In this document: one piece after another, positions 8,778 to 27,052 of the stretch
Numbering within the stretch: the first letter of the stretch is position 1
How the letters are laid out: every line of letters starts with the position of its first letter
Source of the DNA: Oscillatoriales cyanobacterium PMM_0019
GTDB taxonomy: Bacteria > Cyanobacteriota > Cyanobacteriia > Cyanobacteriales > CASBRB01
Length of the DNA: 49,499 nucleotides
NCBI GenBank assembly: GCA_949127975.1
Contig: CASBRB010000196.1
Location: 1 to 49,499, forward strand
Reading direction: 5' to 3'
Translations under genes and position numbers: made by a program
Notes under the pieces: model-generated
Seen by the model: the letters and a program-made list of their open reading frames with translations, nothing else
The model's database searches: none
Told to the model about the DNA's origin: nothing

Positions 8778-10283
8778 CTAACCTTTCCTCTTCATTTGCC
8801 AGTAGTCTTTCAAGGGGTTGTAGGTTCGCTGCCGGAACTCATTTTTGGTTTTAGCAGCTGGGATTTGTAAAGCTCCATACGGGAATTCTGTACGATCAAT
8901 TTCATAGTGCAAATGCGAATTATCTGCTCCTGTGTTACCAGTATTTGCAACTACTTGCCCTGCTGTTACCGACTTATTTAAAGAAACTAAAATCTTGCTC
9001 AGATGCATATACATATGATTGATGCCATTAGCATCTTGGATGGTTAATAAACCCCAGTTTTTATCATCAGCTACGACCACTTTGCCAGACACAAGAGTTT
9101 TGACTGGAGTTCCCAATGGCGCTGCAATATCTATTCCTCCGTGATACCCCTTAGCACCTCCGGTTTCCCTGTAGTAATCATCTGATATGTAAGCACCAGT
9201 GATAGGAAAGTTTTGACCAAATAAGTCATTGGTTAAATCTCTGTAGATTTTTCCAATATCAGAATTTGGATTTGTGTTGATATAGTCTAAAGCTTTAGCA
9301 CTGTTGATTTGATTTTCCCAATCAGTGTCAGACCAAGGTATGAAATTATCAAAATAACCAACTTTTTGTGGGTTCAACCAATTTGCTGATGCAGTGAACG
9401 TTCCAACCTTTCCACCATACGTACCAGTATCAAACAAAGGTCTGTTATTCGAGTCATATACGACAACATTTCCATCTGGCTGAATAGCGAAATAATCACC
9501 AGAATGACCCCATGTATTAGTCGCCCATACTGCTTTACCGTGGTCGTAAAGAACAACATTTCCATCTGTTTGTACTGCCAACAAGTCAGCACCTGTTCCA
9601 AATGTTCCAGTCGCCCAAATTGCTTTACCCTGTGGATTATACAGCACTAAATTTCCATCCGGCTGAAATATGAATTTGTAGTTAGTATAAGTAATCCATT
9701 GTTGACCACGGGAAAAATTTAAGGTGGTTGTGTTTTGCCTAATAATAATCTTAGGTCCACTAACAGGAACATAAGCACTACTTAGCCAACGTTGGTTAGG
9801 ATTAGTAGAATCACAAGTCCATAAATGAACAAATTCCCCATTCTTTCTGGTAGGAGTATCTATACAAAGATTTGTTCCAGCCAGCTTAATTAAATAGTAA
9901 CCATTTTGAAGATCGAGCAAATTCCAATTTTGATCGGCATCTGTAGCATCACATTTCCATACATTTATTGGTTTTTCTTGTTGCTGTATATAATGTGCAT
10001 TCAAACACTTGCCCTGATTAGCCGTGCTGGTAGAACGGTGTTTTAAAAGAAAGCTATCTTTTTGATTACCTGGCATCCTGTCAAATTGTTGATCGAAATC
10101 GCTATCATTGCGGGTATAAATTGCCAACTTGGGCTCATTATCAAGTTTCCCGAATAAGTTATTGGTGTTCAAAGCCATGTTATCTATAGAAAAGGTTTCA
10201 GCGGCTTGAGCCACTGCCGTACTGATAATGGCGGATGAGACAACTGTTGCTAGTGTCAGTTTGTGCAAAATTTTATTAAACAT
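8778..10283 (-). CDS. Secreted M23 metallopeptidase fused to ricin-B (QxW) and bulb-type (B-)lectin domains
   Basis: QNW and QRW ricin repeats. Three QxDGNxVxY repeats (QPDGNLVLY, QTDGNVVLY, QPDGNVVVY). M23 motifs YHGGIDI and NSHLHYE. Signal-peptide-like start at ATG 10283; the track ORF extends to 10373. Confidence 0.85.
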   Translation of the reverse strand: MFNKILHKLTLATVVSSAIISTAVAQAAETFSIDNMALNTNNLFGKLDNEPKLAIYTRNDSDFDQQFDRMPGNQKDSFLLKHRSTSTANQGKCLNAHYIQQQEKPINVWKCDATDADQNWNLLDLQNGYYLIKLAGTNLCIDTPTRKNGEFVHLWTCDSTNPNQRWLSSAYVPVSGPKIIIRQNTTTLNFSRGQQWITYTNYKFIFQPDGNLVLYNPQGKAIWATGTFGTGADLLAVQTDGNVVLYDHGKAVWATNTWGHSGDYFAIQPDGNVVVYDSNNRPLFDTGTYGGKVGTFTASANWLNPQKVGYFDNFIPWSDTDWENQINSAKALDYINTNPNSDIGKIYRDLTNDLFGQNFPITGAYISDDYYRETGGAKGYHGGIDIAAPLGTPVKTLVSGKVVVADDKNWGLLTIQDANGINHMYMHLSKILVSLNKSVTAGQVVANTGNTGADNSHLHYEIDRTEFPYGALQIPAAKTKNEFRQRTYNPLKDYWQMKRKG

Positions 10284-10390
10284 AAGTAGATGAGTCCTTT
10301 CAACTAATGCTTTGGTGAATTGCAAAGTTCCAATGGAGCGATTGCCGTAGTGTACTCGATTAAACTCTCTCACTTTTTCGCATTGCTCCC

Positions 10391-10499
10391 ATTGTGAACC
10401 TCTATTAGTACTCAGGCGCTAGTCAGCCTGTTTTACGCAGACAGCAGTTTTTTTTACAAAACTTTACAAAAAGCTGCTGCTTGGTTGGGAAGCTCAATT
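10391..10499 (-). promoter_or_regulatory. Conserved ~100-nt upstream element, copy 1 (upstream of the lectin-M23 gene)
   Basis: Near-identical to 12887-12978 and 14355-14457. Confidence 0.7.
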
Positions 10500-11083: not shown

Positions 11084-11109
11084 TACAGGCTATTCGTTAG
11101 ACAATCTAG

Positions 11110-11199: not shown

Positions 11200-11209
11200 C
11201 TCTAAGAAA

Positions 11210-11643: not shown

Positions 11644-11704
11644 GGGCAAACGCATCGAACTTTGCCCTGCTGTTGATTGTAACTCGTCAGACAGCCTGAA
11701 TTTA

Positions 11705-11893: not shown

Positions 11894-11895
11894 TA

Positions 11896-12240: not shown

Positions 12241-12303
12241 TTTTGGAACAAATCTTGCCTTTTAGTTAGAAAGCAACAGTTGAAGTATTGGAGCAATAGA
12301 ATT
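12149..12303 (-). repeat. 155-bp segmental duplicate of 11489-11643
   Basis: About 93% identity, read directly. Confidence 0.9.
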
Positions 12304-12864
12304 GGCTATATTCCCATAATTCTGAGAATAAATTGAAGACCAATCAGTAATTCCTTCATCAAATACCACAGATTGATAGTGGTTACCATACGGTTCATCT
12401 GATTTTTGGAAATGAAGATGTCTTCCGGTCGAGCAACCAGAAGCACCTATTATTCCAAGCTTTGTGCCTTGGGGAACAAGTTGATTGATGCCCACTTGAA
12501 AGGTGTTGTCTTTCAAGTGAGCATAGATAGTATAGGTATTGTCCGCATGCTTTATGACAACACGGTTGCCAAAGCCAGAAGGCAAGGTGGGATATCCTGG
12601 ACACCCGCCTGATGAATCATATCCAACTGCAACAACAGTTCCTGCTTGTGAAGCGCGAGCATAAATACCATCACCTGGAGGTACAAAATCGTATCCTCTG
12701 TGAGTTATAGTGCCATTAATGGCATACTCTAATCCGCGAGACATTGAAAACTTGACTTCTGGATCAAATGGCAGCTTATCTCCAGCCATCGCTTTTTCAG
12801 CGAAAACTAGACAAATAGCGATTAATCCAGTCAATCCTGCTACAGCACCCAATTTTTTCAGCAT
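12262..12864 (-). CDS. Secreted M23 family metallopeptidase (catalytic domain only)
   Basis: Signal peptide. HRGYDF (HxxxD) and GRHLHFQ (HxH) motifs. Confidence 0.85.
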   Translation of the reverse strand: MLKKLGAVAGLTGLIAICLVFAEKAMAGDKLPFDPEVKFSMSRGLEYAINGTITHRGYDFVPPGDGIYARASQAGTVVAVGYDSSGGCPGYPTLPSGFGNRVVIKHADNTYTIYAHLKDNTFQVGINQLVPQGTKLGIIGASGCSTGRHLHFQKSDEPYGNHYQSVVFDEGITDWSSIYSQNYGNIANSIAPILQLLLSN

Positions 12865-12886
12865 AAGTCTTCCATGTTCTAAAAAT

Positions 12887-12978
12887 GGTAATTGTGAACC
12901 TCTATTAGTACTCAGGCGCTAGTCAGCCAGTTTTACGCAGGCAGCAACTTTTTTTACAAAACTTTACAAAAAGCTGCT
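12887..12978 (-). promoter_or_regulatory. Conserved upstream element, copy 2
   Basis: Near-identical to copies at 10391 and 14355. Ends 22 nt before ATG 12864. Confidence 0.7.
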
Positions 12979-13150: not shown

Positions 13151-13179
13151 ACGCCCAAAATGTGGGTTGTCGGAAATGC

Positions 13180-13204
13180 CAACTGTGAAAAATTTTCACA
13201 GTTG
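13180..13204 (-). terminator. Perfect 12-bp palindrome CAACTGTGAAAA-A-TTTTCACAGTTG just downstream of the M23-tectonin gene
   Basis: Read directly. Lies 22 nt after the stop at 13226. Confidence 0.5.
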
Positions 13205-13225
13205 TCTGCGATGCCTACACTTCAG

Positions 13226-14338
13226 TTAGTTACAACCTATTACCCAAGTGGAGCCATTAGCCCCTATTCCAATATCGTTTGCACAACCTGGAAGGTGCTG
13301 CCAGCCATTCCCCATCCATTTAAAAATAGCTCCATCCAAGTTATTAACTACCCAAGGTTTACCATCGGGGGCAACGGCTATCCCAACAGCACCACCACCA
13401 ACTGCAGTCCATCCTGAACCATTCCAATACTCTATTCCATATCCACCAAGAGTTGGATGACAATCTATTACCCAAGTGGAGCCATTAGCCCCTATTCCAA
13501 TATCTTTTGCACAACCTGGAATGTGCTGCCAGCCATTCCCCATCCATTTAAAAATAGCTCCATCTAAGCCATTAACTACCCAAGCTTTACCATCGGGGGC
13601 AACGGCTATCCTAACAGCATCACCACCACTTCCAGTCCATCCTGAACCATTCCAATAATATATTCCATATCCACCAGGGTGTGGATACTGTCTTAAAATA
13701 TTTTGGGATTTGTAGGATTTATCATAGTAAACTTGTCCATCTTTACAACTAGAATTGTTATCGCACTCATCAAAGTAAATTGGAGTAGTTTTTCTGTCTG
13801 ATGGACGATTTCCTAACTTTTGTTGTAAATATCGATCTCTGTCTGTCAGTTCTGAATCACTTTTTTGTAGCTCTAAATGTAAATGTGTACCCTTGCTATG
13901 ACCAGTATTTCCACATTGACCAATTACTTGTCCTTGTTTGACAAACCCCTCAACAGGGCTAGGATCTTTTAGATGAGCATAAAGGGAAATCCTTCCATTA
14001 GCGTGCTGGATTCTGATAAAGTTACCTTTCCATGCATCGTTAGTTACTTTTTGGACGACATTGCCATCCATAATTGCAATAATGTCATAATTATTTACAC
14101 CACAGCCAAAATCAATTGCATATTGTTGTAGTTCTCCAGCACCACTTGTGTCACCATCATGTAAATAATTTGTACCATCTATAGAATCCACACCTGACTG
14201 AGTTACTTGAATAGGTGTATCCTCTGGGTGAAATGGCAGTTTGTATCCTTGCCCTGCTTCTACTTTTGCAATTCCAACAACTAAAGACGAGATAGTCGCT
14301 GCTCCTACTACGATCTTTTGCCAAGTTTTACTCAACAT
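13226..14338 (-). CDS. Secreted M23 metallopeptidase fused to two tectonin/tachylectin-like beta-propeller repeats
   Basis: Signal peptide. GNTGHSKGTHLHLEL. Two 76-aa repeats GGYGIxYWNGSGWT...VAPDGKxWVVN...IFKWMGNGWQH.PGCA.DIGIGANGSTWVI. Confidence 0.8.
   Translation of the reverse strand: MLSKTWQKIVVGAATISSLVVGIAKVEAGQGYKLPFHPEDTPIQVTQSGVDSIDGTNYLHDGDTSGAGELQQYAIDFGCGVNNYDIIAIMDGNVVQKVTNDAWKGNFIRIQHANGRISLYAHLKDPSPVEGFVKQGQVIGQCGNTGHSKGTHLHLELQKSDSELTDRDRYLQQKLGNRPSDRKTTPIYFDECDNNSSCKDGQVYYDKSYKSQNILRQYPHPGGYGIYYWNGSGWTGSGGDAVRIAVAPDGKAWVVNGLDGAIFKWMGNGWQHIPGCAKDIGIGANGSTWVIDCHPTLGGYGIEYWNGSGWTAVGGGAVGIAVAPDGKPWVVNNLDGAIFKWMGNGWQHLPGCANDIGIGANGSTWVIGCN
13229..13684 (-). repeat. Tandem 228-bp duplication encoding the tectonin-like repeats
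   Basis: The mirrored antisense ORFs at 13248 and 13476 are offset by exactly 228 nt. Confidence 0.85.
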
Positions 14339-14354
14339 GATTATATAATCCCTT

Positions 14355-14457
14355 GGTAATTGTGAACCTCTATTAGTACTCAGGCGCTAGTCAACCTGTT
14401 TTACGCAGGCAGCAGTTTTTTTTACAAAACTTTACAAAAAGCTACTGATTGGTTGGG
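14355..14457 (-). promoter_or_regulatory. Conserved upstream element, copy 3. Boxes: TGTAAA 14436-14431, TGTAAA 14426-14421, TGCGTAAAAC 14407-14398, GCCTGAG 14385-14379
   Basis: Read on the minus strand. Ends 16 nt before ATG 14338. Confidence 0.7.
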
Positions 14458-14522
14458 TAACTGGGCAGCTGAGGTAGTAGCAGCTACGCCAGCGTATTAG
14501 AGTATTAGCGGCAATCGACTAA

Positions 14523-14550
14523 GTTGGGTTTCGTGCCTCAACCTAACCTA
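14523..14550. repeat. GTTGGGTT-N9-AACCTAAC hairpin repeat (imperfect)
   Basis: Same family as 11057 and 39681. Confidence 0.6.
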
Positions 14551-14621
14551 CCAACTGCTATTGTTATGGTTCCTGCCAGCGCTACTGCCCCCACGTCATC
14601 TATCGTGTGGGAACTCCGTCG

Positions 14622-14692
14622 TGTAAATTTTTGTAACAAATCTTGAGTTTTGCGTAAAACTTTGCAAACCAAGCCTGAGACATAATTAGAGG
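14622..14692 (+). promoter_or_regulatory. Diverged plus-strand copy of the composite element upstream of the sigma-like gene. Boxes: TGTAAA 14622-14627, TGTAAC 14632-14637, TGCGTAAAAC 14651-14660, GCCTGAG 14673-14679
   Basis: Box order and spacings (N4, N13, N12) are identical to copy 3, although the spacer sequences differ. Confidence 0.65.
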
Positions 14693-14708
14693 ATCGCTAG
14701 TCTTTCCT

Positions 14709-15398
14709 GTGGGGGTGGAAATGGATTGCGTGCAGAACGATATACTAGATGAGCGTCTGTTAGAGCTAGCTATGAAAGCTCAAGAACACCAACGTGGAAG
14801 TAAGCAGCGACGGCTAGCTTTAAAGGAGCTGATTAACGAAATTCAGCGGCAATCGGGTAGGCTTATCCGCCCCAATAGCAATAAATATCCGTCTAAACTT
14901 TGTCAAGAAATTTTTGATATAGCCTATCAAAGACTTTTAGTGTTTATCTACCATCCTGATAAAAATATAGAGAGGTATAACCATGACAAGGCAAGAGTAA
15001 TTGGATGGCTAAATATCAAATTAGACAGGCGGTTTTTTGAGGAAGCTAAAAATCAGCTTGTTTCTAATAAAAATATTTCGGTTGAAGATTGGGCGTGGGA
15101 AGATAATCAACAGGGCGAGGAGCTATATAGCATCTTAGTAAAAGAAGAGCCTCCTTGCTCATCCATGATAGTAAGACAGTGTATAGAAGAAGATTCTGAA
15201 GGTATTTTTGAAAAAAAGCATATCAAAGATAACCCAGAAGCTACCTTCCAAAAAATAGCTATAAAAAGGCTTGATGGAGAGTCATGGCAAGACATATCAG
15301 ATTTTTTTGGGATTAAAGCTTTGACAACTACAAGTACTTTTTACCATCGGTGTATTACCAAATTTGCGCCTATAATCAAGCAACTGTGTACTGATTAA
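14709..15398 (+). CDS. Sigma-70-family-like protein of the type found upstream of DUF1822 genes in cyanobacteria
   Basis: N-terminal pattern (GSKQRRLALKELINEIQ..., ...VIGWLNIKLDRRFFEEA) recalled from proteins annotated as sigma-70 family next to DUF1822. GTG 14709 or ATG 14721. Confidence 0.5.
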   Translation: MGVEMDCVQNDILDERLLELAMKAQEHQRGSKQRRLALKELINEIQRQSGRLIRPNSNKYPSKLCQEIFDIAYQRLLVFIYHPDKNIERYNHDKARVIGWLNIKLDRRFFEEAKNQLVSNKNISVEDWAWEDNQQGEELYSILVKEEPPCSSMIVRQCIEEDSEGIFEKKHIKDNPEATFQKIAIKRLDGESWQDISDFFGIKALTTTSTFYHRCITKFAPIIKQLCTD

Positions 15399-15421
15399 TT
15401 GAAGGATAAGTAGGAGGGGTT

Positions 15422-16354
15422 ATGACTCAAGTCAATCAAGTAATAGAGAAGTTAAAATTTTCAGTTGCTATACCTTCAGAAGCGTATGGGATGGCAGAAA
15501 AGTTTTCTAGGCAACAGCATCATCCTCAAAAAGCTAAACAAGTTTACCTAAACACTTTAGCTGTGTATGCAGGTAACTACTTCATAGAGTATCTGGAATT
15601 GGAGACAAATTTGTCAGGTAGTGACAGTTGGAATCCGGTGATGCAGACACTTATGGACACTGCCGATCTAGAAGTCAAGAACTTTGGTAAGCTAGAGTTT
15701 CGTCCGGTATTAGTAGAGTCCCAGTCCCAGGTAGTACACATTCCGTTAGAAGTTTGGGAAGACCGAATTGGCTATGTTGCAGTACAGATCGATCGCTCGC
15801 GCTCTTTAGCAACCCTGTTAGGGTTTGTCAAAACGGTAGTGACAGAAGAAATAGCGATCGACCAATTCCAACCCTTGGAAGATTTGTTAGATTTGCTGAA
15901 TCCCGTTCAGCAACCGGTGCAACTGCGGCAATGGTTACAGAATATTTTTGAACCAGAGTGGCAAGCATTTGAAGCTCTGCTTAAACCAGAACTAAGGAAT
16001 CCAGCCTATGCTACTAGAAAAGTGAGTAAAGAAGCTTTAATTCGAGCAAAGTTTATCGATCTGGAGATGCATCTGAAGGGACAAGCAGCCACTCTCTCGA
16101 TTGGTCTTACCCCAGATGATAAGCTAATGGAAATTCGCGTGCGGTTACATCCTGCACTAACTGCGAAGTATTTGCCCCCTAACCTAAAACTGGCTTTACT
16201 CACTCAGGCGGGGAGAGTGATCCGGGAGGTAGAATCGAGAAACCAAAATACCTGCATTCAACTCGAACCATTTAAGTATGAGATGGGGAGAAGCTTTCGT
16301 ATCCGGGTAGCTCTTGGTGATGTCAGCGTTATGGAAGATTTCTTTGCTGTCTGA
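15422..16354 (+). CDS. DUF1822 family protein
   Basis: KAKQVYLNTLAVYAGNYFIEYLELETNLSGSDSW...ADLEVKNFGKLEFRPVL matches the recalled DUF1822 signature. Starts 23 nt after the sigma-like gene. Confidence 0.75.
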   Translation: MTQVNQVIEKLKFSVAIPSEAYGMAEKFSRQQHHPQKAKQVYLNTLAVYAGNYFIEYLELETNLSGSDSWNPVMQTLMDTADLEVKNFGKLEFRPVLVESQSQVVHIPLEVWEDRIGYVAVQIDRSRSLATLLGFVKTVVTEEIAIDQFQPLEDLLDLLNPVQQPVQLRQWLQNIFEPEWQAFEALLKPELRNPAYATRKVSKEALIRAKFIDLEMHLKGQAATLSIGLTPDDKLMEIRVRLHPALTAKYLPPNLKLALLTQAGRVIREVESRNQNTCIQLEPFKYEMGRSFRIRVALGDVSVMEDFFAV

Positions 16355-16373
16355 GTGATTATCGGGGTGCATC

Positions 16374-19220
16374 ATGACTAAGCCATATTACTTCCGTTTC
16401 ATTAGGAGATGTTTAGGTTCCTTTGTTATACTGTACCTAACGCAGTTTAGCAAACTCAGTAGATCGAAAAGTTTTCCAGAAACTTTAAGGCGCAGGTATG
16501 TTGGGATTAAGGCCACCATCCGTCAGACTCCCCAAGGCATCAACTTCTTGAGGCATAGGGTTGTAGATCAATTTCTACGAGAGCGAACTGTCGCTCGCTC
16601 TCGTAGACCTCAGTTAAATGGGCTGAAAACTACTTTATCTCGTCAACTTACAAAAGTTTTAGATCTACTGAAAGGCTCTCGTAGATTGTTCGCAGGATTT
16701 ACCCGTCAACATCGCGAAAGACAGAGAATGACACGTATGCAACCAGGATTAAAAACAGTTATCTTGTGCTTAGGACGAGGGGATTTGCAGAAAGGCTGTC
16801 CGGATATCAGCGTTGAGCTTTTGGCGTCTGACAATCATACATTGATGAAAAAAATCTGCTGCTTACCCCCTTCGTTAGAACTGGTTAAACTTTATAGGTG
16901 TTGGGAGCTTTTCTACTGGGATTACTATGAAGGTCGGGGGTTTGATTTCCGTAGTGTAACGAATGAAGACGAAGAATACCCCGATGAGATCCTGAATGAA
17001 GACGATGAAGACCCCGATGAGATCCTTAATGAAGACGATGAAGACCCCGATGAGATTGCAGCAGCGGGGATCACCCATATTTCTGAGTACTCTGGGGCTG
17101 AACTAAGCGAACTAGATGAAAAATTAAAAGAGTGTTTCAATAAATGGCTAAGTTGTGAGGAATTTACTAAAATTGAAAAACAATTACGCGATCGATTGGG
17201 ATTATCTGAAAATATTATAATTGTCGTTGAAACTGAAGACGAGCAAATACGGAAACTTCCTTGGAGGCAGTGGAAGTTTGTTGAAGACCACCCTAAAGCA
17301 GGCGTGACTATCAGTGGTTTAACCCGTGAAGACTTGGATAAGTCGTCCCTACCAGAAGAAAAAAATGCAGTTAATATTTTATGTATTATCGGTAATAATA
17401 AAAATATTGATACAACTGATGATATAAATAGTATCAAAAAGATTCAGGGCGTATCAACAACTTTTTTATACCAGCCTTCATCATCAAAATTAAAAGACCA
17501 ACTTTGGGAAAACAGCTATGATTATTTATTGTTTTCTGGTCATAGTTCCAGCAAGGCAGGCGGAGTGATTAAGATAAACGATCGAGAAAGCTTGACAATC
17601 AAGGATTTAAGGGCAGCCCTGAAAAAAGCAATTGAAAATGGATTAAAGTTAGCAATTTTTAATTCTTGTGATGGATTGAAATTGGCAAGTGACTTAGCTG
17701 ATTTAAATATTCCGGCAGTGATTGTCATGCGAGATCCGGTGCCAGACAAAGTTGCACAAAATTTTTTGAACTATTTTATACAAGATTTTTTTAGTGGTAA
17801 TTCCCTAGATGCTTCTGTAAGGAAAGCAGCAGAAAGATTGCAATTAATGGAAAAAGAATTTCCTTGTGCATCGGGGTTGCCAACGCTCGTTTGGAACCGT
17901 GCCGAAGAGCTTCCGCGCCCAAGAACGCCAATCTGGGGTCGTCTTCGTCTAGTGCTTTGTGCAAGTTTACTTGTAACTAGCTTATTGATGTGGGGACGGC
18001 ATCAGGGCAAGCTACAAACATGGGAATTGCAGGCTTTTGACTACTCAATGCTAATGCAGTTGCAACAAGTTGAAAAGCCCGACAATCGGATCTTGGTTGT
18101 CAGAATAACTAAAGACGACATTAATGATCAGCCCCAAAAGGATCGAGGACTAGCATCGCTATCAGAACTCACACTGGAAACTCTCTTAAAGAAACTAGAG
18201 GAAGAGGATCATAAACCGCGAGTCATTGGTTTGGATATTTATCGCCCATTGCCGGTAAACTCCCGCTATATAAACTTAAAAGCTAATTTCCAAAGGAACG
18301 ATCGCCTGATTGTTGTATGCAAAGGTAACACTCCTCAAGATCCAGGTGCTTCACCCCCCCCTGAGGTTCCGCAAAAGCGCATAGGCTTTAGTGATTTTGT
18401 GCTTGATGAGGACAATATTATCCGTCGCCATCTTTTGTTGATGGAGCCTGTAGCCCCTTGTCAGGCAATGGACATAAATAAGAATGACAATATGGAAGCC
18501 TTCAGTGTCAAGTTAGCACTGAGTTATTTGAAAAAACAGGGTATTACACGCCAAGATGGTAAAAACGACGAATTTCTCAAGATTGGCGACGTTATTTTCA
18601 AAGACCTAGAAATCGGCTTTGGCGGCTACCAGCGTTCAGATTCATATAAAGATATGGACGGTCACCAGGTAATGCTGAATTACCGTCATTACCGTGACTA
18701 TCTCAACGACATTGCCAAATCATTAACTCTAAAAGAAGTTTTGAATAATCAGTTTAATACTGCTGATGTAAGAGATCGGATCGTTCTCATAGGTGGTGAT
18801 GTTGAAACTGATTTGTACTATACACCCTTTAGTAATCAGAAAAAGCCCCCTGAGCCAATACCAGGAGTATTCATTCATGCCCAGATGGTGAGCCATATTC
18901 TCAGTGTAGTTCTAAAGGAGCGCCCCTTAATTTGGGCTTGGTCTTGGTGGGGTGATACTCTATGGGTGTGGAGTTGGTCTTTAATAGGGGGTGTGTTGGT
19001 TTGGCGAGTGCGATCGCTATTACGCCTCGGACTTGCTACAGGAGCTGCACTTGTCATTTTGAATGGAATCTGCTTTGTCTTCTTAACGCAAGGCGGTTGG
19101 ATACCACTTGTTCCTTCAGCAATAGCACTGTTAACTACTGCTGGAAGTATAGTAGTTTACAGTGCCTTTTTTTACAACGATTTTGGTAGACATTTAAACC
19201 TTAAATTATCACTGAGATGA
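16374..19220 (+). CDS. Membrane protein with N-terminal CHAT-like (caspase-fold His/Cys) domain and C-terminal CHASE2 sensor domain
   Basis: LLFSGHSS...LAIFNSCDG His/Cys dyad context. TM segment LVLCASLLVTSLLMWG. CHASE2-like ILVVRITKDD...RVIGLDIY. Three or more C-terminal TM helices. Confidence 0.7.
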   Translation: MTKPYYFRFIRRCLGSFVILYLTQFSKLSRSKSFPETLRRRYVGIKATIRQTPQGINFLRHRVVDQFLRERTVARSRRPQLNGLKTTLSRQLTKVLDLLKGSRRLFAGFTRQHRERQRMTRMQPGLKTVILCLGRGDLQKGCPDISVELLASDNHTLMKKICCLPPSLELVKLYRCWELFYWDYYEGRGFDFRSVTNEDEEYPDEILNEDDEDPDEILNEDDEDPDEIAAAGITHISEYSGAELSELDEKLKECFNKWLSCEEFTKIEKQLRDRLGLSENIIIVVETEDEQIRKLPWRQWKFVEDHPKAGVTISGLTREDLDKSSLPEEKNAVNILCIIGNNKNIDTTDDINSIKKIQGVSTTFLYQPSSSKLKDQLWENSYDYLLFSGHSSSKAGGVIKINDRESLTIKDLRAALKKAIENGLKLAIFNSCDGLKLASDLADLNIPAVIVMRDPVPDKVAQNFLNYFIQDFFSGNSLDASVRKAAERLQLMEKEFPCASGLPTLVWNRAEELPRPRTPIWGRLRLVLCASLLVTSLLMWGRHQGKLQTWELQAFDYSMLMQLQQVEKPDNRILVVRITKDDINDQPQKDRGLASLSELTLETLLKKLEEEDHKPRVIGLDIYRPLPVNSRYINLKANFQRNDRLIVVCKGNTPQDPGASPPPEVPQKRIGFSDFVLDEDNIIRRHLLLMEPVAPCQAMDINKNDNMEAFSVKLALSYLKKQGITRQDGKNDEFLKIGDVIFKDLEIGFGGYQRSDSYKDMDGHQVMLNYRHYRDYLNDIAKSLTLKEVLNNQFNTADVRDRIVLIGGDVETDLYYTPFSNQKKPPEPIPGVFIHAQMVSHILSVVLKERPLIWAWSWWGDTLWVWSWSLIGGVLVWRVRSLLRLGLATGAALVILNGICFVFLTQGGWIPLVPSAIALLTTAGSIVVYSAFFYNDFGRHLNLKLSLR
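16962..17060 (+). repeat. In-frame 33-nt x3 tandem repeat encoding acidic NEDxEx PDEIL units
   Basis: Units at 16962, 16995 and 17028, read directly. Confidence 0.9.
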
Positions 19221-20047
19221 AGTTACATTTCCAGAACTTAAAACTTACCGTTGCTGTCACCTTGGCATTCGTTAGTTTGGTAAACACTGTGCCAGCGGTT
19301 CAGAGCGAGACAGATCCTGTGCCTCCTCCAGATGTTCTGCTTTCACCTACTCAAAAGAGCGATCGCTTAATCTTCACACAGCTAGAAGCTTCCAGACGCG
19401 GAGCACCTGGTCGTCGCAGAGGGGGAGGAACCTTTGGTGGTGGTAATCAGTGCAAAGGTGTGACAATACCTCTCACTGCCTTAGTACCTGGTGAGGAGAA
19501 AGTCGGCAGTTTAGACCTAAAAGCCGAAAGCGTTCGGGGATTAACCGCAGAGGGATATCCAACTTTTTGGTTTTTTGTTCCCTATGGGGAAGCGTCTAAA
19601 CTAGACGCTGAGTTAGTCTTGGTAAATGACCAGAATAAACCAGTTTACCAAGAACTTGTTCCGCTAACTGGAACCCCTGGTATAGTGAAAATTTCATCAA
19701 AACGGATGTCAGCACCGTTAGAAGTTGGCAAGGATTATCGGTGGTCATTTTCAGTTATTTGTAACCCGCAAGAGTCATCTGCAAATTTTTATGTGCAAGG
19801 GCGGGTAAAAAGGATCGAGCCAAGTCCCAATCTTACAAGGGAGTTAAAGACAGCAACACCAGAGCAAAAAGTTTTTCTTTATGCCCAAGAAGGCTTGTGG
19901 TATGAAACTGTAACCACTATCAGAGAAGAACTTAGTTCGACTAATCCCCAAAAAGCCACATTACTAATGACTAACCTTTTGCAGTCAGTAGGTTTGGATG
20001 ACATCGCTCAACAGCCATTTGTTCCATGTTGCACGCACAAAAAATAA
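19217..20047 (+). CDS. DUF928 domain-containing secreted protein
   Basis: Signal peptide. RRGAPGRRRGGGT and YPTFWFFVPY signatures. The ATGA start overlaps the stop of the CHASE2 gene. Confidence 0.75.
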   Translation: MKLHFQNLKLTVAVTLAFVSLVNTVPAVQSETDPVPPPDVLLSPTQKSDRLIFTQLEASRRGAPGRRRGGGTFGGGNQCKGVTIPLTALVPGEEKVGSLDLKAESVRGLTAEGYPTFWFFVPYGEASKLDAELVLVNDQNKPVYQELVPLTGTPGIVKISSKRMSAPLEVGKDYRWSFSVICNPQESSANFYVQGRVKRIEPSPNLTRELKTATPEQKVFLYAQEGLWYETVTTIREELSSTNPQKATLLMTNLLQSVGLDDIAQQPFVPCCTHKK

Positions 20048-20069
20048 CTGACCGATGACAATCGAATCA

Positions 20070-22961
20070 CTATAGCCAATCTACCACAAGCACAAATGAT
20101 GCCCAATGACGCGGAGCTTCGTAGGATGAATCAGGATCTTCTAGGAGAGCTTTTTGGGCAAGGTGAAGCGCTTCTGCTGGGCTTTTTTGGTTTTTGACTA
20201 ACTCGGTATAGAACTTCTCTATAAGAATGGTGGTAGAGTCTTGATCTGCAAACCAGAGAGGTGCGATCGTACTGTGTGCCCCAGATTTAACGGCTACTCC
20301 AGCAATTCCCAAAGCTGTTCGATTGTTTCCTTTAGCCGTCTCACAAGCACTCAAGACAAGTAACTGAATAGCATCACCTTTATTTTGGTTCCTATTTTCC
20401 AGGTAACCTCTCAACTCATTTATATTTATTTTACCATCTCCAGAAAGTATATATGTAGTCTGGTAACTTGAACCGAATTGACCATGAGCTGCCAGGTGGA
20501 TTATATTATACAACGATGAGCTAAGCTTGTCTTTAAAAACATTTTTACTGAAGTCTGGATCGAGTAGCACATCAGAATCATTTCTAATTTTCTTAATTAT
20601 ATTTGCTTGTTCCTGCACTAATGGATTGGCACCAAATTCAGGAGGATGTTCTTTAGTTACTCCTGCAAATAGAATTTTAAACCGCTTTAAATTATATTTT
20701 TGAGCTTCTAGAATTTGAACAGTAGGAATCAAAGCTACTGTAAAATTTTTCTGTACCAGATACTCCTTACCATCGTAAAGAGCCGCCATTGGAATATCTC
20801 GTAAATAACCATCTAGTACAAACACTAAAGACTTAATTTTATTTTTATATAACTGGTCTATAAAAGGCAAAATTAACCAGTTATACACTTCTTCTGATAA
20901 GTTCTCACCTTCTTTATCAAATATTGGTTTTCCTAAGAGATAATGCAGTTTTTTCAGCTTCTTTATCACTGCTTTCTCATTAAGATTAGGCGTGACGTGG
21001 TAAAGTAGATTATCTTGCCCAGGCAGCTTGACTATTACCGATACTTGCGTTTTCAAAATAATCGGAAAAATCAAGGCTACTGTCTGATTCTCTCTCAAAA
21101 CTTGATTTATTTGCTTAATCAATATCTCTGTAGGGTCGTCTTGAGCGATAACTCGATTAATCTGTACGGTTCTGACATCCGCTAGGTTGCACTGTAGAAA
21201 ATTTTCTAACTCGGCTAATTGCAGAGATTCAATATAGTAAAGTGATTCTTCTAGTTGTTTTTGATTGGGATGGGTTTCTTCAGGTGGCAATAATAAAGCG
21301 ACTAAGTCTCGATAAACTGGTTCTACATTATCCCGTAAGGAAAACTGCGCTTCTGTGTTCACCCCTGCCAAGTTATTGCGCAGTGACTTGAGAGTTTTCA
21401 CCGCGTCCCGATAGGCAGAAATAGCCTCTGGGATATGGTTCTGTTCTTTGTATATGCGCCCCATCTGCCATTGCCACCGATAGTAGAGATCCGGTGCTAT
21501 GATATTTTGTTGTGATAGGTCCAGGGCTTGCTGAGTAAAAGTTTCAGCTTTATCCCACTGCTTAGTTACTTCATACAGGTTTCCAAGAGTACCAAGAGTG
21601 TAAGATTCTGCGCGTCGATCTCCTTTTCCTAGTTGTCGAGCTTGCTGTGCTGTTTGCCGTAATAAATTGGTAATTTCTGGTTCTGAAGGTGCGCCCGTTA
21701 TCTGAAGCTGTACAAGGCGTATCAAACTCTGAGCCAGGTTAATTTGATTGTAAATTCTGGTACTGCTTGGGGATACATCTGGGATTGGAGTAAGCAGTTG
21801 AGACAGGTTAAATTTAGCAAGCCACTCATTAATTTTGGACTGCCAATTCGGAAAAGCTGGAGATTCTATATATTGCAACCATTGTGCTGTTTCTAGCAAT
21901 AAGCCAATTTGATTGAGTTTAGATTGAATCTTGGTATTGTGAGCAATGAATTGACTGTCTACAGCTTGTTGATAGAGTTTTATCGCTTTGTCAGCACTTT
22001 CTTGAGCTTGCTGTTCATCATCCAACGCTCTGGCGCGACTTGATCTTGCTCGTTCGACGTTACCCAAACTAAGAAGGATATCACCACTAATGCTTTGAGA
22101 AGATTTTAGACTGTTAGCTAATTTTTGACTTGAGTCGAAAAATGATTTAGCATCATCATAGTCTCCTAAGGCTAGATAAACATTACCAAAGTTGTACAAA
22201 CCGCCGAACTTAATCAATAAATCTAGCGGCTGTTGGAGAATGTATTTAATGTGTTTTGAAGCATCGTAGTCTAGCTTGTCAATTTTAAAAGCTTGCTCGT
22301 CAATTTTAAAAGCTTTCAGTAATGTTTTGCGAGCGTCCAGGTAATATCCTAGATATTGCAGCGCTTGAGATTGGTTGATTTGGTTGCGGATACTTCCAGC
22401 CGTGTCTGTTACTTTGATGTAGATTGCATCCGCCTGTCGCCAGGTTTCCAATGCTTCTTTAGCTTTTCCTAATGCTAATTCCAGCTTGCCGCGTGTATTT
22501 AAGGCTTGAGCCAAAACTGGCAATTGCTCTGGAGAATTACTTGTATCTAGTACTGTTGGTAACAGTTGCAAGCTGTCGTTAATAGCTTGTTCTGCCTCAG
22601 TCCATCTGCTCTGTTGCTGATAAGTCAGTGAGAGATTACTCAAAGCCATAGCCTGACACAGCTTATTTTTTTGGGATTGATAATTATCTCTGGCTGATTC
22701 CCATGCTGTCTGTGCTTTGTCGAACTGTCCTGTTTCGTAAAATTCTCTACCTGGCTGTACGAGTGGGCAGGAATTGACAGGTGTAGGAGGAACTTGGGAC
22801 ATGGCGGGGGATATCCCTATGCCCGTAAACAAATTGTATGCCAACTGCCCCAACAATGCCAAAACAAAGAGTAGCAGTAAGTGCCAGCGCGATCGCATAA
22901 GACTATGTATTAATGCAAGCAGTTTTCTAGAAATGTTCATCAGATCAATTACCAAAGTCAC
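20070..22961 (-). CDS. TPR-repeat protein with C-terminal CHAT (caspase-like) domain
   Basis: N-terminal TM/signal segment, many TPR-like repeats, IIHLAAHGQF and LLVLSACETAKG His/Cys motifs. Starts 6 nt after the stop of the TPS exoprotein gene. Confidence 0.85.
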   Translation of the reverse strand: MTLVIDLMNISRKLLALIHSLMRSRWHLLLLFVLALLGQLAYNLFTGIGISPAMSQVPPTPVNSCPLVQPGREFYETGQFDKAQTAWESARDNYQSQKNKLCQAMALSNLSLTYQQQSRWTEAEQAINDSLQLLPTVLDTSNSPEQLPVLAQALNTRGKLELALGKAKEALETWRQADAIYIKVTDTAGSIRNQINQSQALQYLGYYLDARKTLLKAFKIDEQAFKIDKLDYDASKHIKYILQQPLDLLIKFGGLYNFGNVYLALGDYDDAKSFFDSSQKLANSLKSSQSISGDILLSLGNVERARSSRARALDDEQQAQESADKAIKLYQQAVDSQFIAHNTKIQSKLNQIGLLLETAQWLQYIESPAFPNWQSKINEWLAKFNLSQLLTPIPDVSPSSTRIYNQINLAQSLIRLVQLQITGAPSEPEITNLLRQTAQQARQLGKGDRRAESYTLGTLGNLYEVTKQWDKAETFTQQALDLSQQNIIAPDLYYRWQWQMGRIYKEQNHIPEAISAYRDAVKTLKSLRNNLAGVNTEAQFSLRDNVEPVYRDLVALLLPPEETHPNQKQLEESLYYIESLQLAELENFLQCNLADVRTVQINRVIAQDDPTEILIKQINQVLRENQTVALIFPIILKTQVSVIVKLPGQDNLLYHVTPNLNEKAVIKKLKKLHYLLGKPIFDKEGENLSEEVYNWLILPFIDQLYKNKIKSLVFVLDGYLRDIPMAALYDGKEYLVQKNFTVALIPTVQILEAQKYNLKRFKILFAGVTKEHPPEFGANPLVQEQANIIKKIRNDSDVLLDPDFSKNVFKDKLSSSLYNIIHLAAHGQFGSSYQTTYILSGDGKININELRGYLENRNQNKGDAIQLLVLSACETAKGNNRTALGIAGVAVKSGAHSTIAPLWFADQDSTTILIEKFYTELVKNQKSPAEALHLAQKALLEDPDSSYEAPRHWASFVLVVDWL

Positions 22962-22967
22962 TATTTA

Positions 22968-25900
22968 TCATGGCGCTTGGCAGCCAGTTGGTGTCTGAGC
23001 TACAAGCAATAACCGATTATCGGCGGTTTTCACCAGCGCCTGGGCTTCCACAATTGGCATTGATACAGAACTGGTGGCAGTTCTTGCACGCGGGACAGAA
23101 GCGCCCAAATCGTCCAGAGTCGTATTATTATTGAGGACTTCATTAGGCTGAGGTGGCAATCCGCCAGTTCCGCTGACAGTAAAGCTGTTGGTTGCTACTG
23201 TCCCACTGGATTGACAGACGGGGAAGTTGGCGACAGGTTGCCCTAACTCCAATCGCAAAGGGGCTACTGAGCGACTAGGATCGTCTAGCCTCTTGATTGT
23301 CACCTGGCCATTGATCCCCAGTTGGGAACTGGCATCAATGTTACTATCTGGTGAACCAAAGATTCCTGCAACTGTTATTGCAATATTACCTCCTTGTCCG
23401 CGAATAGCATTAGCTCGGATGTCACTATTTTCCAAAGCTATAATAGTGTCACTGTTGAAATTAATATTCCCACCGTTAGCAGTGCCTAAAGCATTGGTGG
23501 TGATATTACTTTGGTGACGCAGTTGTGCGTCTTTTGCCTGTATTGTAATATTGCCGCGATCGCCTGCTGTGGTGTTAGCCTTAAAACTGCTGTTGTCCAT
23601 ATAGAGCGAGTTAGTCTCAATTCCCATATTGCCTGCTCCCCCTAAACCATCAGCGCTCACAGAGGATTGGGCTCCATCCAGGATTTGCAACTGCCCCGTT
23701 TGAACTGTTAAGTTTCCGCCTGCACCTGTTGAGTTAGCTTCGGTGTTGGCAAACAAGCCACTGGCTGATCCTTGGTTGCCACTGATATCTGGAACGAGTT
23801 TTCCGGTGTTATCTATAACATTCTGGATAGGTCGGTTAGCAAAATTGCGATCGCTCCCAGAGAGGATAATGCTACCATCGACATGCAGGTTAATATTCCC
23901 TGCCTTACCACTGCCAGCAGTTGTAGTTACGATTTGTCCGCCATTAATCGCTTCAACCCGATGGGCGTTAATATTAATATTTCCCCCAGGACTGGAATTA
24001 AGAGTTAAAGAACTGATAATTGCTCCATCTAGCACCCGCAACCTATCAGTATTAACTGTGATTTCTCCCGCCTGACTATGTGCAGCCTGTTCGGTAGGTG
24101 TAAATAATCCACTAGATTGCCCGTTAGAGCCAACTCCAGCTAGAGTAACCTCGCGAGCATTAATCTGAATATTTCCTCCTTTTCCTTGATTGCGAGTGCT
24201 AGCGATCGCTATAGCTCCATTAGTGATAGAAATTGTCCCCGCTACGAGCGAAATGTTTCCTCCTCGACCAACTCCAAAATCTTTAACACTACTGTATATA
24301 CCACTGTTTCTAGGAAAGCCAAGGTTGGGATCGAATAAACCCAGTCCATCTAAGACAATGCGATCGCTTACATTAATATCAATAATCCCCGCATCGCCCA
24401 TCCCATTTGTACTGCTGGTGAGGTAAGCACCATGAGTGACAAAGAGCGACCCCGCCACGATCTTAATTATCCCGCCATTACCTACAGCTTGAATTCCTAC
24501 TTGATTGAAGGCACCACTAGATGCGATATCCAAACCCTGTCCATCAAAGGTTACAGTATCGCGAACATTAATATTTATAATCCCCGCATTACCTTGTCCC
24601 AATGTACTAGCGGTGATCGCAGCACCGTTGGTAACAAAAAGCGAGCCTGCCGCAATACTAATATTACCCCCATCACCGACAGCATTTTGATTTTCTACGC
24701 GATTGTAGATCCCAGTGGAAAATAAATCAGGTCCCTCACCATCAAGAATGGCAAGATCTCGGACATTTATATTTATACTACCTGCCTGACCATGTCCAAA
24801 GGTACTAACTTGCAGCGTTGCACCATTAGTAAAAGATAGCGAGCCCGCCGTAATATTAACATTACCCCCTTGACCCACACCTGTAGATGCTACATTGCTG
24901 AATGCACCACTGGAGTTGCCATTCCTGCCCTCTCCATCAAAGGAAACGCGATCTCTAACATTAATATTTACAATACCCGCGTTGCCTCGTCCATAGGTAC
25001 TAGCAGTAAAAATTGCACCATTAGTCATAAAAAGCGATCCAGCTGTGAGATTAATATTACCCCCATTACCTACAGCATCTTTGGTTTCTACCCGACTGTA
25101 TATACCACTAGAAGAAAATGGGCCTTTGGGATCGGCCCCATCAAAAGAAGCGATATTTTTAACATTAATCAATACATTGCCCGCATCACCCACTCCAAAA
25201 GTGCTGGCAATCAAATCAGATGCATCAGTAACTTTGAGCGATTCGGCTTCGATAATAATGTCGCCACCCTTGCCCGTAGCTCTAGATTGCACCACATTAG
25301 CAAGAAAACTCCCACCAGACAGGTTAATTTTCCCTGTCGTGTTAAGTTCAATATTTCCTGCCTTACTGCCAACCGAACCCAACCCCAAACCTATCCCTGC
25401 TCGCAGATTACTTCCTCCTGACATATCTAAATTCCGGGCATTGACAACAATGCTGCCACCACCTCCAGCACGGACATTCACTTCAGCACCATTGCTCAGG
25501 GATACGTCTGCTCGTTGTACTCCCTCCGGGAAACTTAAACGCAGGTTACTGCCATCTACGATTAGAGGTATGGTTCCAGAACCTGCTAGTCCTCCCAACT
25601 CGACTCGACCCCCTGGTGCTAATAACTGCCCACCATCAATCTGCACATTGCCACCCACCAATAACAAACTTTGACCAGATGGAACTTCTAAATTTGCGTG
25701 ATTGGTGATCGAGTTCGCTGCCAGTTGATTTAAGAAAAGGGCATTCGGGTTTACCGTCAATAGTGTTGGGTTATTCGGAGTTGTTGCACTAAATTTGCCT
25801 ACATTGCCAAACCCTAGAGCATTGGCTGTTGTAGCCACAAAAGAACCACGGATATCTAAGCCTGCATTCGGACCAAAAATAATTCCATTGGGATTGAGCA

Positions 25901-26267
25901 GGAATAAGTTAGCTGTGCCGTTGGCTCGCAGAATGCCATTAATAGTAGACATCGACCCACCTGTCACCCGCGTGAAGATGTTACTAACATCCACAGCATT
26001 GTTGAAAAGAGCCGTACCACCTGTGGGTACAGAAAACTGAGTAAAGCTGTGAAAAAGGTTGCCCCCGGCTCTGGTGCCACCGTTAATCAGACTGGTAGAA
26101 CCCTGCGATGTGACAAGAGAATTGACAGGCAGAGTTTTATCAGGTATAATCGACGGAGGTATGATTTGCGCTCCTGTGCGAGTTCCGGGGAATGCTCTAG
26201 CTCCACCCATCGCAAAAAAACTCATGAGTCCTAACTTCCAGCCCCAACGCCCCCAATTTTTAGCCAT
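22968..26267 (-). CDS. Two-partner-secretion (filamentous hemagglutinin N-terminal, TPS) domain exoprotein with beta-helix repeats
   Basis: Signal peptide. GGNLFHSFTQFSV and LFLLNPNGIIFG TPS motifs. Long Gly/Asn/Ile-rich repeat region. Confidence 0.9.
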   Translation of the reverse strand: MAKNWGRWGWKLGLMSFFAMGGARAFPGTRTGAQIIPPSIIPDKTLPVNSLVTSQGSTSLINGGTRAGGNLFHSFTQFSVPTGGTALFNNAVDVSNIFTRVTGGSMSTINGILRANGTANLFLLNPNGIIFGPNAGLDIRGSFVATTANALGFGNVGKFSATTPNNPTLLTVNPNALFLNQLAANSITNHANLEVPSGQSLLLVGGNVQIDGGQLLAPGGRVELGGLAGSGTIPLIVDGSNLRLSFPEGVQRADVSLSNGAEVNVRAGGGGSIVVNARNLDMSGGSNLRAGIGLGLGSVGSKAGNIELNTTGKINLSGGSFLANVVQSRATGKGGDIIIEAESLKVTDASDLIASTFGVGDAGNVLINVKNIASFDGADPKGPFSSSGIYSRVETKDAVGNGGNINLTAGSLFMTNGAIFTASTYGRGNAGIVNINVRDRVSFDGEGRNGNSSGAFSNVASTGVGQGGNVNITAGSLSFTNGATLQVSTFGHGQAGSININVRDLAILDGEGPDLFSTGIYNRVENQNAVGDGGNISIAAGSLFVTNGAAITASTLGQGNAGIININVRDTVTFDGQGLDIASSGAFNQVGIQAVGNGGIIKIVAGSLFVTHGAYLTSSTNGMGDAGIIDINVSDRIVLDGLGLFDPNLGFPRNSGIYSSVKDFGVGRGGNISLVAGTISITNGAIAIASTRNQGKGGNIQINAREVTLAGVGSNGQSSGLFTPTEQAAHSQAGEITVNTDRLRVLDGAIISSLTLNSSPGGNININAHRVEAINGGQIVTTTAGSGKAGNINLHVDGSIILSGSDRNFANRPIQNVIDNTGKLVPDISGNQGSASGLFANTEANSTGAGGNLTVQTGQLQILDGAQSSVSADGLGGAGNMGIETNSLYMDNSSFKANTTAGDRGNITIQAKDAQLRHQSNITTNALGTANGGNINFNSDTIIALENSDIRANAIRGQGGNIAITVAGIFGSPDSNIDASSQLGINGQVTIKRLDDPSRSVAPLRLELGQPVANFPVCQSSGTVATNSFTVSGTGGLPPQPNEVLNNNTTLDDLGASVPRARTATSSVSMPIVEAQALVKTADNRLLLVAQTPTGCQAP
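24270..25250 (-). repeat. About five internal ~200-nt (about 67-aa) repeats in the TPS exoprotein
   Basis: Recurrent GNAGI.NINVRD...FDG.G...GGN.NI.AGSL..TNGA units. Boundaries are approximate. Confidence 0.6.
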
Positions 26268-26565
26268 TTCAGTAATTGCACCCTTAGAAAATTGCTAAAT
26301 TTTTTAACCCGAGTGGATAATTTAAGCCCTTGCAGCACGCTTGACGCTTGTAGGCTCAAGTGTCCTCAAGAGGATCGCTGGTAGTAATCTATTTGCTGCC
26401 ACAACAATTAATCATTAATATAATATCTCTTTAGGGGGACAAAAAAAAAATAAATCCAATTTATATAAAACTTTACAATAAATTGGTGTATTAAGTGTTT
26501 TTGGATATAAAACTGGGCGCATAAGCTGTGAGAGTCACTTCGCCTTTACCACAACTAGATGTGTA

Positions 26566-26926
26566 CTAGCCCATAACTTCTTGTCTTTGAGCGATCGTTT
26601 CAACACAAACAGCAGCCACTTTAACAACCTCTGACAGGGGCAGCTTCCGTATTCTGTTTAACAATTGCTCTAGTGGAACTTCTTCTAGCGATCCCAAATG
26701 GGGTTGTTCCCCCTTTACTAAATAATGTTGAAGGTCATCTAGGCTCCACCCTTTCAGTGCCGCCAGCTTCTCCAAATTCTCCGTTGATGGCCAAGCTAAG
26801 CCAGATTCCCAAAAGTTGACAGCCCCATTGCTCACGCCTAGCCGTTTAGCAAACTGGCGTTGACGCAAGAAAACCCCGCAACTCTTGAACTATTTTGGCT
26901 AATCGTTGACTTTTGCTGGACTCCAT
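26566..26926 (-). pseudogene. XRE-family HTH regulator, 5' end frameshifted near 26868-26880
   Basis: Paralog of ORF 48716-49081. MESSKSQRLAKIVQELRGFL from ATG 26926 is in a different frame from QRQFAKRLGVSNGAVNFWE. Confidence 0.6.
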
Positions 26927-27052
26927 AACATTCATTCTAAAGCTATCACAAGCGGCACATACCTGTGTCCCTTTTTTTTAAGGTAAACTTGGATGAATGA
27001 CGGATTTAACAAAATGTTTATTCCATCATTCAGTCGCTGCCTTAAATCAACC

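Follow-up and report, generated by a model that had tools for sequence, protein, structure and literature searches.

A putative protease-gated, transmembrane sigma-factor pathway on a plasmid-like contig of an oscillatorialean cyanobacterium

The window analyzed here is the whole of a 49,499-nucleotide stretch from Oscillatoriales cyanobacterium PMM_0019 (contig CASBRB010000196.1, positions 1 to 49,499, forward strand), and its subject is a set of six genes in two convergent operons. The plus-strand operon encodes a sigma-like factor, a DUF1822 protein, a CHAT-CHASE2 membrane protein and a DUF928 protein; the minus-strand operon encodes a two-partner secretion (TPS) exoprotein, here called TpsA, and a TPR-CHAT protein. 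An earlier note on this DNA, made from the sequence alone, had described four coupled plus-strand genes facing a TPS/TPR-CHAT operon, and our check of the window bore out its six open reading frames (ORFs), their spacing and their domain calls by Pfam, as follows (ECF, extracytoplasmic function; TM, transmembrane segment):

14721..15398, plus strand: divergent ECF-like sigma factor, 225 aa, assigned by profiles; the ORF as listed opens at GTG 14709
15422..16354, plus strand: DUF1822 protein (Pfam E=5.6e-69), 23 nt after the sigma stop
16374..19220, plus strand: EACC2-like N-region, CHAT, one TM, periplasmic CHASE2 and C-terminal TMs, predicted by Pfam, hydropathy and alignment
19217..20047, plus strand: DUF928 protein (Pfam E=7e-54); its ATG overlaps the CHAT-CHASE2 stop; signal-like N-terminus
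20070..22961, minus strand: TPR-CHAT caspase-like protease (Pfam E=1e-46); signal-like N-terminus; dyad in ...AAHGQF... and ...LSACET...
22968..26267, minus strand: TpsA-type exoprotein (TPS domain PF05860, E=1e-56; TIGR01901); signal-like N-terminus

On the plus strand, 23 nt separate the sigma gene from the DUF1822 gene and 19 nt separate the latter from the CHAT-CHASE2 ORF, after which comes one stop/start overlap; on the minus strand, the TPR-CHAT gene begins 6 nt past the TPS gene. NCBIfam added a filamentous-haemagglutinin N-terminal domain and a HetF match far below threshold to the annotation of the window proteins.

The window sigma protein alone had no match in Pfam, NCBIfam or PDB, and a word-indexed homologue search returned one sigma relative only. 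An exhaustive search, used in its place, defined a family of 458 cluster representatives, and an alignment and profile were built from 79 members sampled from these. The alignment favors ATG 14721 as the sigma start over the listed ORF (14709-15398, plus strand). Sigma70_r4_2 was matched by 32 of the 79 sampled members and Sigma70_r2 by 19 of 79. Against PDB, the profile matched mostly ECF sigma factors, with all of the top eight being of this kind (RpoE, SigE, SigK, SigH, SigW), at weak E-values of 0.0065 to 0.8 (0.0065-0.07 for ECF sigma region 2), and hhalign aligned it with regions 2 and 4 of E. coli RpoE, a sequence entered by hand, at 94% probability. In an AlphaFold2 (AF2) model with a pLDDT of 90, the 225-aa protein folds into two helical domains joined by a disordered stretch (131-141), and this layout, which lacks region 1.1 and region 3, fits an ECF (group 4) sigma factor. 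On the strength of the family profiles, we call the protein a divergent ECF-like sigma factor, in keeping with the dedicated sigma-like factor of the earlier note. Many homologues carry N-terminal extensions of 90-180 residues or form C-terminal domains of larger proteins.

ECF promoters typically combine an AAC-containing -35 box with a CGT-containing -10 box. The upstream regions of the sigma genes have in common the element TGTAAAGTTTTGTAAC-N15/16-C(G/A)TAAAA, the strict form of which is TGTAAAGTTTTGTAAC-N15/16-CGTAAAA. Scanning 918 kb (all loci plus the window) with the strict composite gave 14 matches, compared to 0 in ten shuffles. Exactly four perfect sites fell in the window, one ahead of the sigma operon and one ahead of each of three M23 peptidase genes, which are predicted regulon members:

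14622..14659, plus strand: ECF-type promoter of the sigma operon, TGTAAATTTTTGTAAC-N15-CGTAAAA, ending 62 nt before ATG 14721
14399..14436, minus strand: ECF-type promoter, TGTAAAGTTTTGTAAA-N15-CGTAAAA, ahead of the M23-Tectonin gene and back-to-back with the sigma promoter
13226..14338, minus strand: secreted M23 peptidase with Tectonin repeats (Pfam, signal-like N-terminus, promoter)
12931..12968, minus strand: ECF-type promoter ahead of the short M23 gene (composite scan)
12262..12864, minus strand: secreted M23 peptidase, 200 aa (Pfam, signal-like N-terminus, promoter)
10431..10468, minus strand: ECF-type promoter ahead of the M23-Ricin/B-lectin gene (composite scan)
8778..10373, minus strand: M23 peptidase with Ricin-B and B-lectin domains (Pfam, promoter)

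The suggestion that M23-lectin enzymes are outputs of the system thus gains direct support, as the sigma operon's ECF-type promoter recurs ahead of each M23 gene; two of the three peptidases have signal-like N-termini by hydropathy. A 228-bp tandem duplication with 93% identity (13232-13676) lies in the C-terminal, Tectonin-repeat half of the M23-Tectonin gene. The composite replaced a first short motif, AAAACTTTRCAAA, which was the reverse complement of the real promoter's upstream half, and a generic scan for sigma-70 promoters and terminators performed at best as well as shuffles.

In the related loci L009, L012, L020, L021 and L025, too, sigma genes are preceded by this motif. L009 has a divergent promoter copy ahead of a gene for a 1765-aa Peptidase_S8 protein, and L012 has one divergent copy and three tandem copies (8257-8486, minus strand, spaced 96 bp) ahead of a trypsin-like PEP-CTERM gene. 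When metagenome contigs were scanned for the exact pattern, 53 loci were recovered; the first gene downstream belonged to the sigma family in 13 of the 53 (E=1e-20 to 1e-79), and a sigma gene lay nearby in three or four more. Elsewhere among these loci the downstream genes encoded S8+PPC giants, an RTX/beta-propeller protein, a lipase, RTX+PPC and PG_binding_1+GH19 proteins, DUF3466, TpsA (L078), COP23, a dynamin-like GTPase and a recurrent protein of ~75 aa. This last protein (...LIRDVV..GYLT..EE..LR.LL.TKYD.EDL...), which has no Pfam match, is encoded first after the promoter in L072 (3462, plus strand), L094 (283, plus strand) and L097 (2191, minus strand). The sigma promoter of the window (TGTAAC-N15-CGTAAAA), with an AAC-type -35 and a CGT-type -10 element kept in distant loci, is predicted to be autoregulatory.

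In the third plus-strand protein, residues 354-490 match the CHAT domain (Pfam E=2.8e-9) and residues 537-873 match CHASE2 (E=3.4e-54), and hydropathy shows a single TM segment, 520-538, ahead of CHASE2 and more hydrophobic segments after it, from ~829 to 930. CHASE2 is predicted to be extracytoplasmic because it is flanked by TM segments, and the topology first proposed (cytoplasmic CHAT, TM, extracytoplasmic CHASE2, further TMs) agrees with both analyses. The catalytic dyad, His390/Cys432, is invariant in 41 of 41 homologues, and His and Cys are likewise kept in the CHAT domain of the TPR-CHAT protein. Ahead of the caspase domain, a block of ~170 residues is conserved in all homologues and is taken as a putative counterpart of the EACC2 module of Kaur, Iyer, Burroughs & Aravind (eLife 2021; PMC8195603). 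Within this region, a 33-bp tandem repeat of 2.9 copies (16961-17056) encodes an acidic NEDDEDPDEIL insert that homologues lack. The first ~118 codons of the ORF (16374-16727), a basic stretch, have no counterpart in 40 homologues, so translation may really begin at Met119 or Met122 (nt 16728 or 16737), in which case ~370 nt would separate the gene from DUF1822.

The DUF1822 protein has no TM segment by hydropathy and is predicted to be soluble and cytoplasmic. In its AF2 model (pLDDT 83), residues 13-160 form an alpha+beta N-domain and residues 206-308 a C-terminal beta-sandwich, with a linker of low confidence (163-201) between them, and as modeled the protein is not TPR-like. In ~30 fetched loci, DUF1822 sits between the sigma and caspase genes wherever both were seen. 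This placement, the two-domain layout with a linker, and the precedent of the Craspase system, described below, suggest that DUF1822 could gate the sigma factor, and we regard it as a candidate sigma-binding inhibitor or adaptor and a candidate caspase substrate.

To place the locus among its relatives, we surveyed 39 DUF1822-anchored loci from diverse cyanobacteria, together with plasmid loci, and classed them by tblastn and blastp with the window proteins. The order sigma, DUF1822, EACC2-caspase recurs in ~33 of the 39, so that clustering of these three genes exceeds chance. The remainder of the caspase protein varies, with CHASE2 in ~21 loci and TPR or pentapeptide repeats elsewhere. DUF928 is present in 15 of 18 informative CHASE2-type loci compared to 0 of 10 non-CHASE2 loci (Fisher p=2e-5); it tracks CHASE2, not the caspase. 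Gene order and orientation shuffle between loci, as in Nostoc PCC 7524, where a DUF928-TPS-TPR-CHAT operon is divergent from sigma-DUF1822-caspase-CHASE2, and the comparison supports the view that the six genes of the window are a recurrent set, shuffled but co-inherited.

Taking DUF928 as the anchor instead, CHASE2 was adjacent in 12 of 15 places. DUF928 is mostly immediately downstream of the CHASE2 gene and is divergent from it in Kovacikia. The CHASE2 genes linked to DUF928 carry different cytoplasmic parts, namely EACC2-caspase, CHAT, TIR (three in Kovacikia) and AAA_35 (Planktothrix); in Nostoc NIES-3756, a CHASE2 protein with no cytoplasmic module follows a STAS/kinase/PP2C partner-switch set, with DUF928 alongside. 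In the window, the start of DUF928 overlaps the preceding stop and the N-terminus is signal-like. Family members share an Arg/Gly-rich GAPxGRRRGGxSRGxC segment (residues ~60-80) just before a conserved PLTALVP and, in most, a C-terminal CC; the GRRRGG-type segment or the CC could be a protease site, a lipid site or a metal site. PG_binding_1 is fused to some homologues, and the DUF928 profile had no match among PDB sequences. DUF928 is, in our reading, an exported protein and a candidate periplasmic partner of CHASE2. Gene neighborhoods and fusions lead us to infer that CHASE2 and DUF928, often with TPR-CHAT, TpsA and TpsB, make up an extracytoplasmic sensing module that plugs into differing cytoplasmic effectors, of which the caspase-sigma arrangement would be one.

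The genes of the minus-strand operon follow the same distribution. TPS, exported CHAT or ShlB genes occur in 13 of 18 CHASE2-type loci compared to 0 of 10 others (p=2.5e-4), and the pair of exported TPR-CHAT and TpsA accompanies the CHASE2/DUF928 sensor pair. The TPR-CHAT family is predicted to be exported because hydropathy gives hydrophobic, signal-like N-termini in 12 of the 14 homologues examined. Two fusions, both adjoining DUF928, link this exported protease to the TPS machinery: a TPS-TPR-CHAT protein of 1774 aa in Acaryochloris (L046, 9672-14996) and a POTRA/POTRA_2 (ShlB-type)-TPR-CHAT protein of 1415 aa in Calothrix (L106, 10662-14909). TPS is the sole Pfam match in the window TpsA, the C-terminal region of which is long and unannotated. 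TpsB is present in the related loci L002, L009, L014 and L108, and no POTRA or ShlB-type domain was found among the Pfam-scanned ORFs of the window. Upstream of the window TPS operon, a search for a cognate ECF-type promoter showed only a half-element, TTGTAAAGTTTT, and the upstream regions inspected for TPS, DUF928, TPR-CHAT and control genes of other loci showed no cognate promoter. Because it lacks such a promoter, the TpsA/TPR-CHAT pair looks like an input rather than the output that the earlier note had made of the exoprotein. Cyanophage resistance in mutants of Nostoc PCC 7120 was accompanied by mutations in the CHAT gene all2170 and in a gene whose product has a filamentous-haemagglutinin N-terminal domain (PMC10811720); a link between TpsA/CHAT surface proteins and phage is possible.

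Beyond these operons, the window looks like part of a mobilizable plasmid, judging from the following ORFs:

33822-36140, plus strand: MobA/VirD2 relaxase
43574-47512, plus strand: 1312-aa PrimPol-type protein
32439-33167, plus strand: RHH protein
26932-27267, minus strand: ParB-like ORF, labeled by eye only
4349-6388 and 6391-8064, both minus strand: GH5-CBM2 cellulase and T2SSE pair, a further secreted-hydrolase theme on the same plasmid

The N-terminus of the 1312-aa protein matches the PrimPol AEP domain (PDB 6zp9, E=1e-24), marking it as a replication-type protein. The GH5 cellulase has two CBM2 modules and lies directly downstream, at 3 nt, of the type II secretion/type IV pilus (T2SS/T4P)-type ATPase (T2SSE); this pair has no ECF-type promoter. 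A tandem array of 27-bp units, ~98% alike, runs from 49315 to the last nucleotide of the window (49499). The ends of the window do not overlap, so a closed circle was rejected, and megablast of the operon against plasmids gave no match. PADLOC reported no defense system in the window apart from a generic TPR match, and no Cas7-11/gRAMP match appeared among the scanned window ORFs; no dedicated search for a CRISPR array was made, and the tandem-repeat scan spanned only 8000-27500.

With moderate confidence, we interpret the locus as a plasmid-borne transmembrane pathway in which a protease gates an ECF sigma factor. CHASE2 would act with exported DUF928 on an envelope cue outside the cytoplasm, joined on the sensing side in most loci by the exported TPR-CHAT protease and the TpsA fiber, and sometimes by TpsB. 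Activation of the cytoplasmic CHAT domain (His390/Cys432) fused to CHASE2 would then lift the inhibition of the ECF-like sigma factor, most plausibly through cleavage of the two-domain DUF1822 protein within its disordered linker. The freed sigma factor would recognize TGTAAC-N15/16-CGTAAAA, boost its own operon and turn on secreted hydrolases, which in the window would be three M23 peptidoglycan endopeptidases, two of them with lectin modules, and in other genomes subtilases, trypsin-like proteases, a lipase, GH19 and RTX proteins. Gene linkage, the dyads, the topology, the ECF-like nature of the sigma factor and the common promoter are observations on which this scheme builds; the nature of the cue, binding of DUF1822 to the sigma factor and cleavage of DUF1822 by the caspase are inferred, and release of the sigma factor by CHAT is plausible by analogy with Craspase.

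Several results weigh against this pathway. Foldseek found nothing significant for the sigma model (best PDB match, a sigma-S holoenzyme chain at E=0.9), and the sigma call rests on profiles for this reason: regions 2 and 4, which the earlier note had wanted checked by structure prediction, are seen in the family profiles but not as a significant structural match. For DUF1822, Foldseek returned generic Ig-like beta-sandwiches only, with no anti-sigma or Csx30-like fold, and the family profile had no match among PDB sequences, Csx30-type inhibitors included. Among the 29 sigma genes of the fetched loci, only ~6 are preceded by the strict promoter, with looser or differently spaced variants elsewhere. 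The regions ahead of the three M23 genes are paralogous, each being a copy of a single ~85-nt block that starts at the promoter, so their promoters amount to roughly one independent event. None of the 39 related loci has an M23 gene, and M23 genes were rejected as conserved neighbors (0/39); the outputs are therefore taken to be genome-specific, though usually secreted hydrolases. Finally, tblastn with the ShlB query from L002 found no TpsB in the window.

An alternative, which we judge unlikely, follows the frame of Kaur et al. (2021) and makes the locus a counter-invader or programmed-death system triggered by a phage or other invader, with the caspase serving chiefly as a self-directed effector or autoprocessing trigger and transcription taking second place. 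In its favor, that work defined the EACC2-caspase family in this setting, sister architectures put TIR in the caspase's place on the same CHASE2/DUF928 sensor, and the locus is on an apparently mobilizable plasmid; the near silence of PADLOC, the predicted extracytoplasmic position of the sensor and the presence of a dedicated, apparently autoregulated sigma factor with a hydrolase regulon argue the other way. The two readings are compatible and do not exclude each other.

It is similarly doubtful, to our minds, that the architecture is as described but DUF1822 is an adaptor or switch (TRADD-N-like) or a co-activator, with the caspase acting on itself, on the sigma factor or on sigma N-terminal extensions. 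The supplement of Kaur et al. (PMC8195603) labels some NCBI 'DUF1822 family' proteins TRADD-N+TPRs, and the lack of an anti-sigma fold in DUF1822 and the long N-terminal extensions or larger host proteins of many sigma homologues would suit this proposal. Against it, the window sigma factor has no extension, the DUF1822 profile aligned with human TRADD-N, a sequence entered by hand, at 0.1% probability in hhalign, and two domains with a disordered linker fit a cleavable substrate. TRADD was also absent from the DUF1822 Foldseek results shown. A Fischerella plasmid locus, considered as a tie between DUF1822 and the TRADD-N entry, turned out to be a different (WD40) variant.

More speculative still, and quite improbable in our estimate, is an elaboration of the sigma pathway into a two-caspase envelope relay or guard circuit. 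Here DUF928 would be a periplasmic bait, and an exported TPR-CHAT protease would cut it at its conserved GRRRGG segment; this protease could be the cell's own, deployed together with the TpsA fiber upon contact, or could come from a rival. CHASE2 would read the cut, the cytoplasmic caspase would free the ECF sigma factor, and lectin-targeted lytic enzymes would answer. If this were true, the CHASE2/DUF928 sensor, reused with TIR or AAA effectors, would be a general envelope-surveillance module of multicellular cyanobacteria. That the two operons are unrelated plasmid neighbors that merely abut, as their convergence, separate transcription and the lack of a sigma-type promoter on the TPS operon might suggest, is very improbable given their co-occurrence in 13 of 18 CHASE2-type loci compared to 0 of 10 others in varying order and orientation, the DUF928 gene inside the TPS operon of Nostoc PCC 7524 and the DUF928 gene adjoining the TPS-TPR-CHAT fusion of Acaryochloris.

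Should the protease-gated sigma pathway prove correct, a dedicated sigma factor would be controlled by a caspase-like protease fused to a membrane sensor, a transmembrane counterpart of the Craspase-Csx30-RpoE idea, and three widespread cyanobacterial families would gain a first function, with DUF1822 serving as the gate, DUF928 as a partner of CHASE2 and the divergent sigma family being tied to a defined promoter. The promoter motif would allow the regulon to be read from sequence alone, and its outputs point to secreted bacteriolytic and proteolytic enzymes, which would bear on competition, defense against predation and cell-wall remodeling in filamentous cyanobacteria.

Among known systems, the closest is the sigma/DUF1822/EACC2-caspase system that Kaur et al. 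(PMC8195603) predicted computationally. They named CHASE2 among the variable C-termini of EACC2-caspase proteins and proposed stimulus-induced autopeptidase activation, with a last step via the sigma factor, and their supplement lists Haemagg_act genes beside 'SIG+TPRs+CASPASE'. The present locus shares the constant N-terminal module and caspase, the variable sensor and the neighboring ECF sigma and DUF1822 genes. Kaur et al. call DUF1822 a TPR protein, whereas our model is alpha+beta with a beta-sandwich, and we found no mention there of DUF928, the CHASE2-DUF928 pairing, a cognate promoter or a hydrolase regulon. The earlier note had thus missed a published neighborhood and mechanistic proposal when it knew of no functional description; this and the exoprotein as output are the parts of its interpretation that fell, whereas linkage, dyads, an ECF-like sigma factor and M23 outputs stood. 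In the literature library searched, we found no experimental work on the sigma/DUF1822/EACC2-caspase core and no paper joining CHASE2 with a CHAT domain or a CHAT domain with two-partner secretion; DUF928 came up there in a single, unrelated paper and DUF1822 in two.

In the type III-E Craspase system (PMC9825189), the TPR-CHAT protease Csx29 cleaves Csx30, whose N-terminal domain binds the sigma factor RpoE. The resemblance lies in a signal-activated CHAT-family protease whose gene goes with those of a small sigma factor of ECF type and of a two-domain partner with a linker that is, or could be, cleaved. Unlike Craspase, the present locus has no Cas7-11/gRAMP and no RNA trigger, the trigger here being a putative transmembrane CHASE2 sensor, and DUF1822 is not detectably related to Csx30. 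In classical ECF sigma/anti-sigma pathways, regulated proteolysis and cell-surface signaling are exemplified by RseA with DegS/RseP and by FecA-FecR-FecI. An envelope signal, proteolysis and release of an autoregulated ECF sigma factor, proposed here as well, and similar promoter boxes link the two, but our scheme assigns proteolysis to a cytoplasmic clan-CD caspase-like domain that is part of the sensor protein, has as its putative inhibitor a soluble protein that lacks an anti-sigma domain, and includes no site-1/site-2 protease pair. As in two-partner secretion, a large exoprotein with an N-terminal TPS domain is present, with TpsB beside it in some related loci; unlike such systems, the window has no TpsB, and TpsA comes with an exported TPR-CHAT protease, either as its pair or as a fusion. 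The core of the system is thus already known computationally, and what is new is the CHASE2-DUF928 pairing, the TPR-CHAT/TpsA link and a defined promoter with a secreted-hydrolase regulon.

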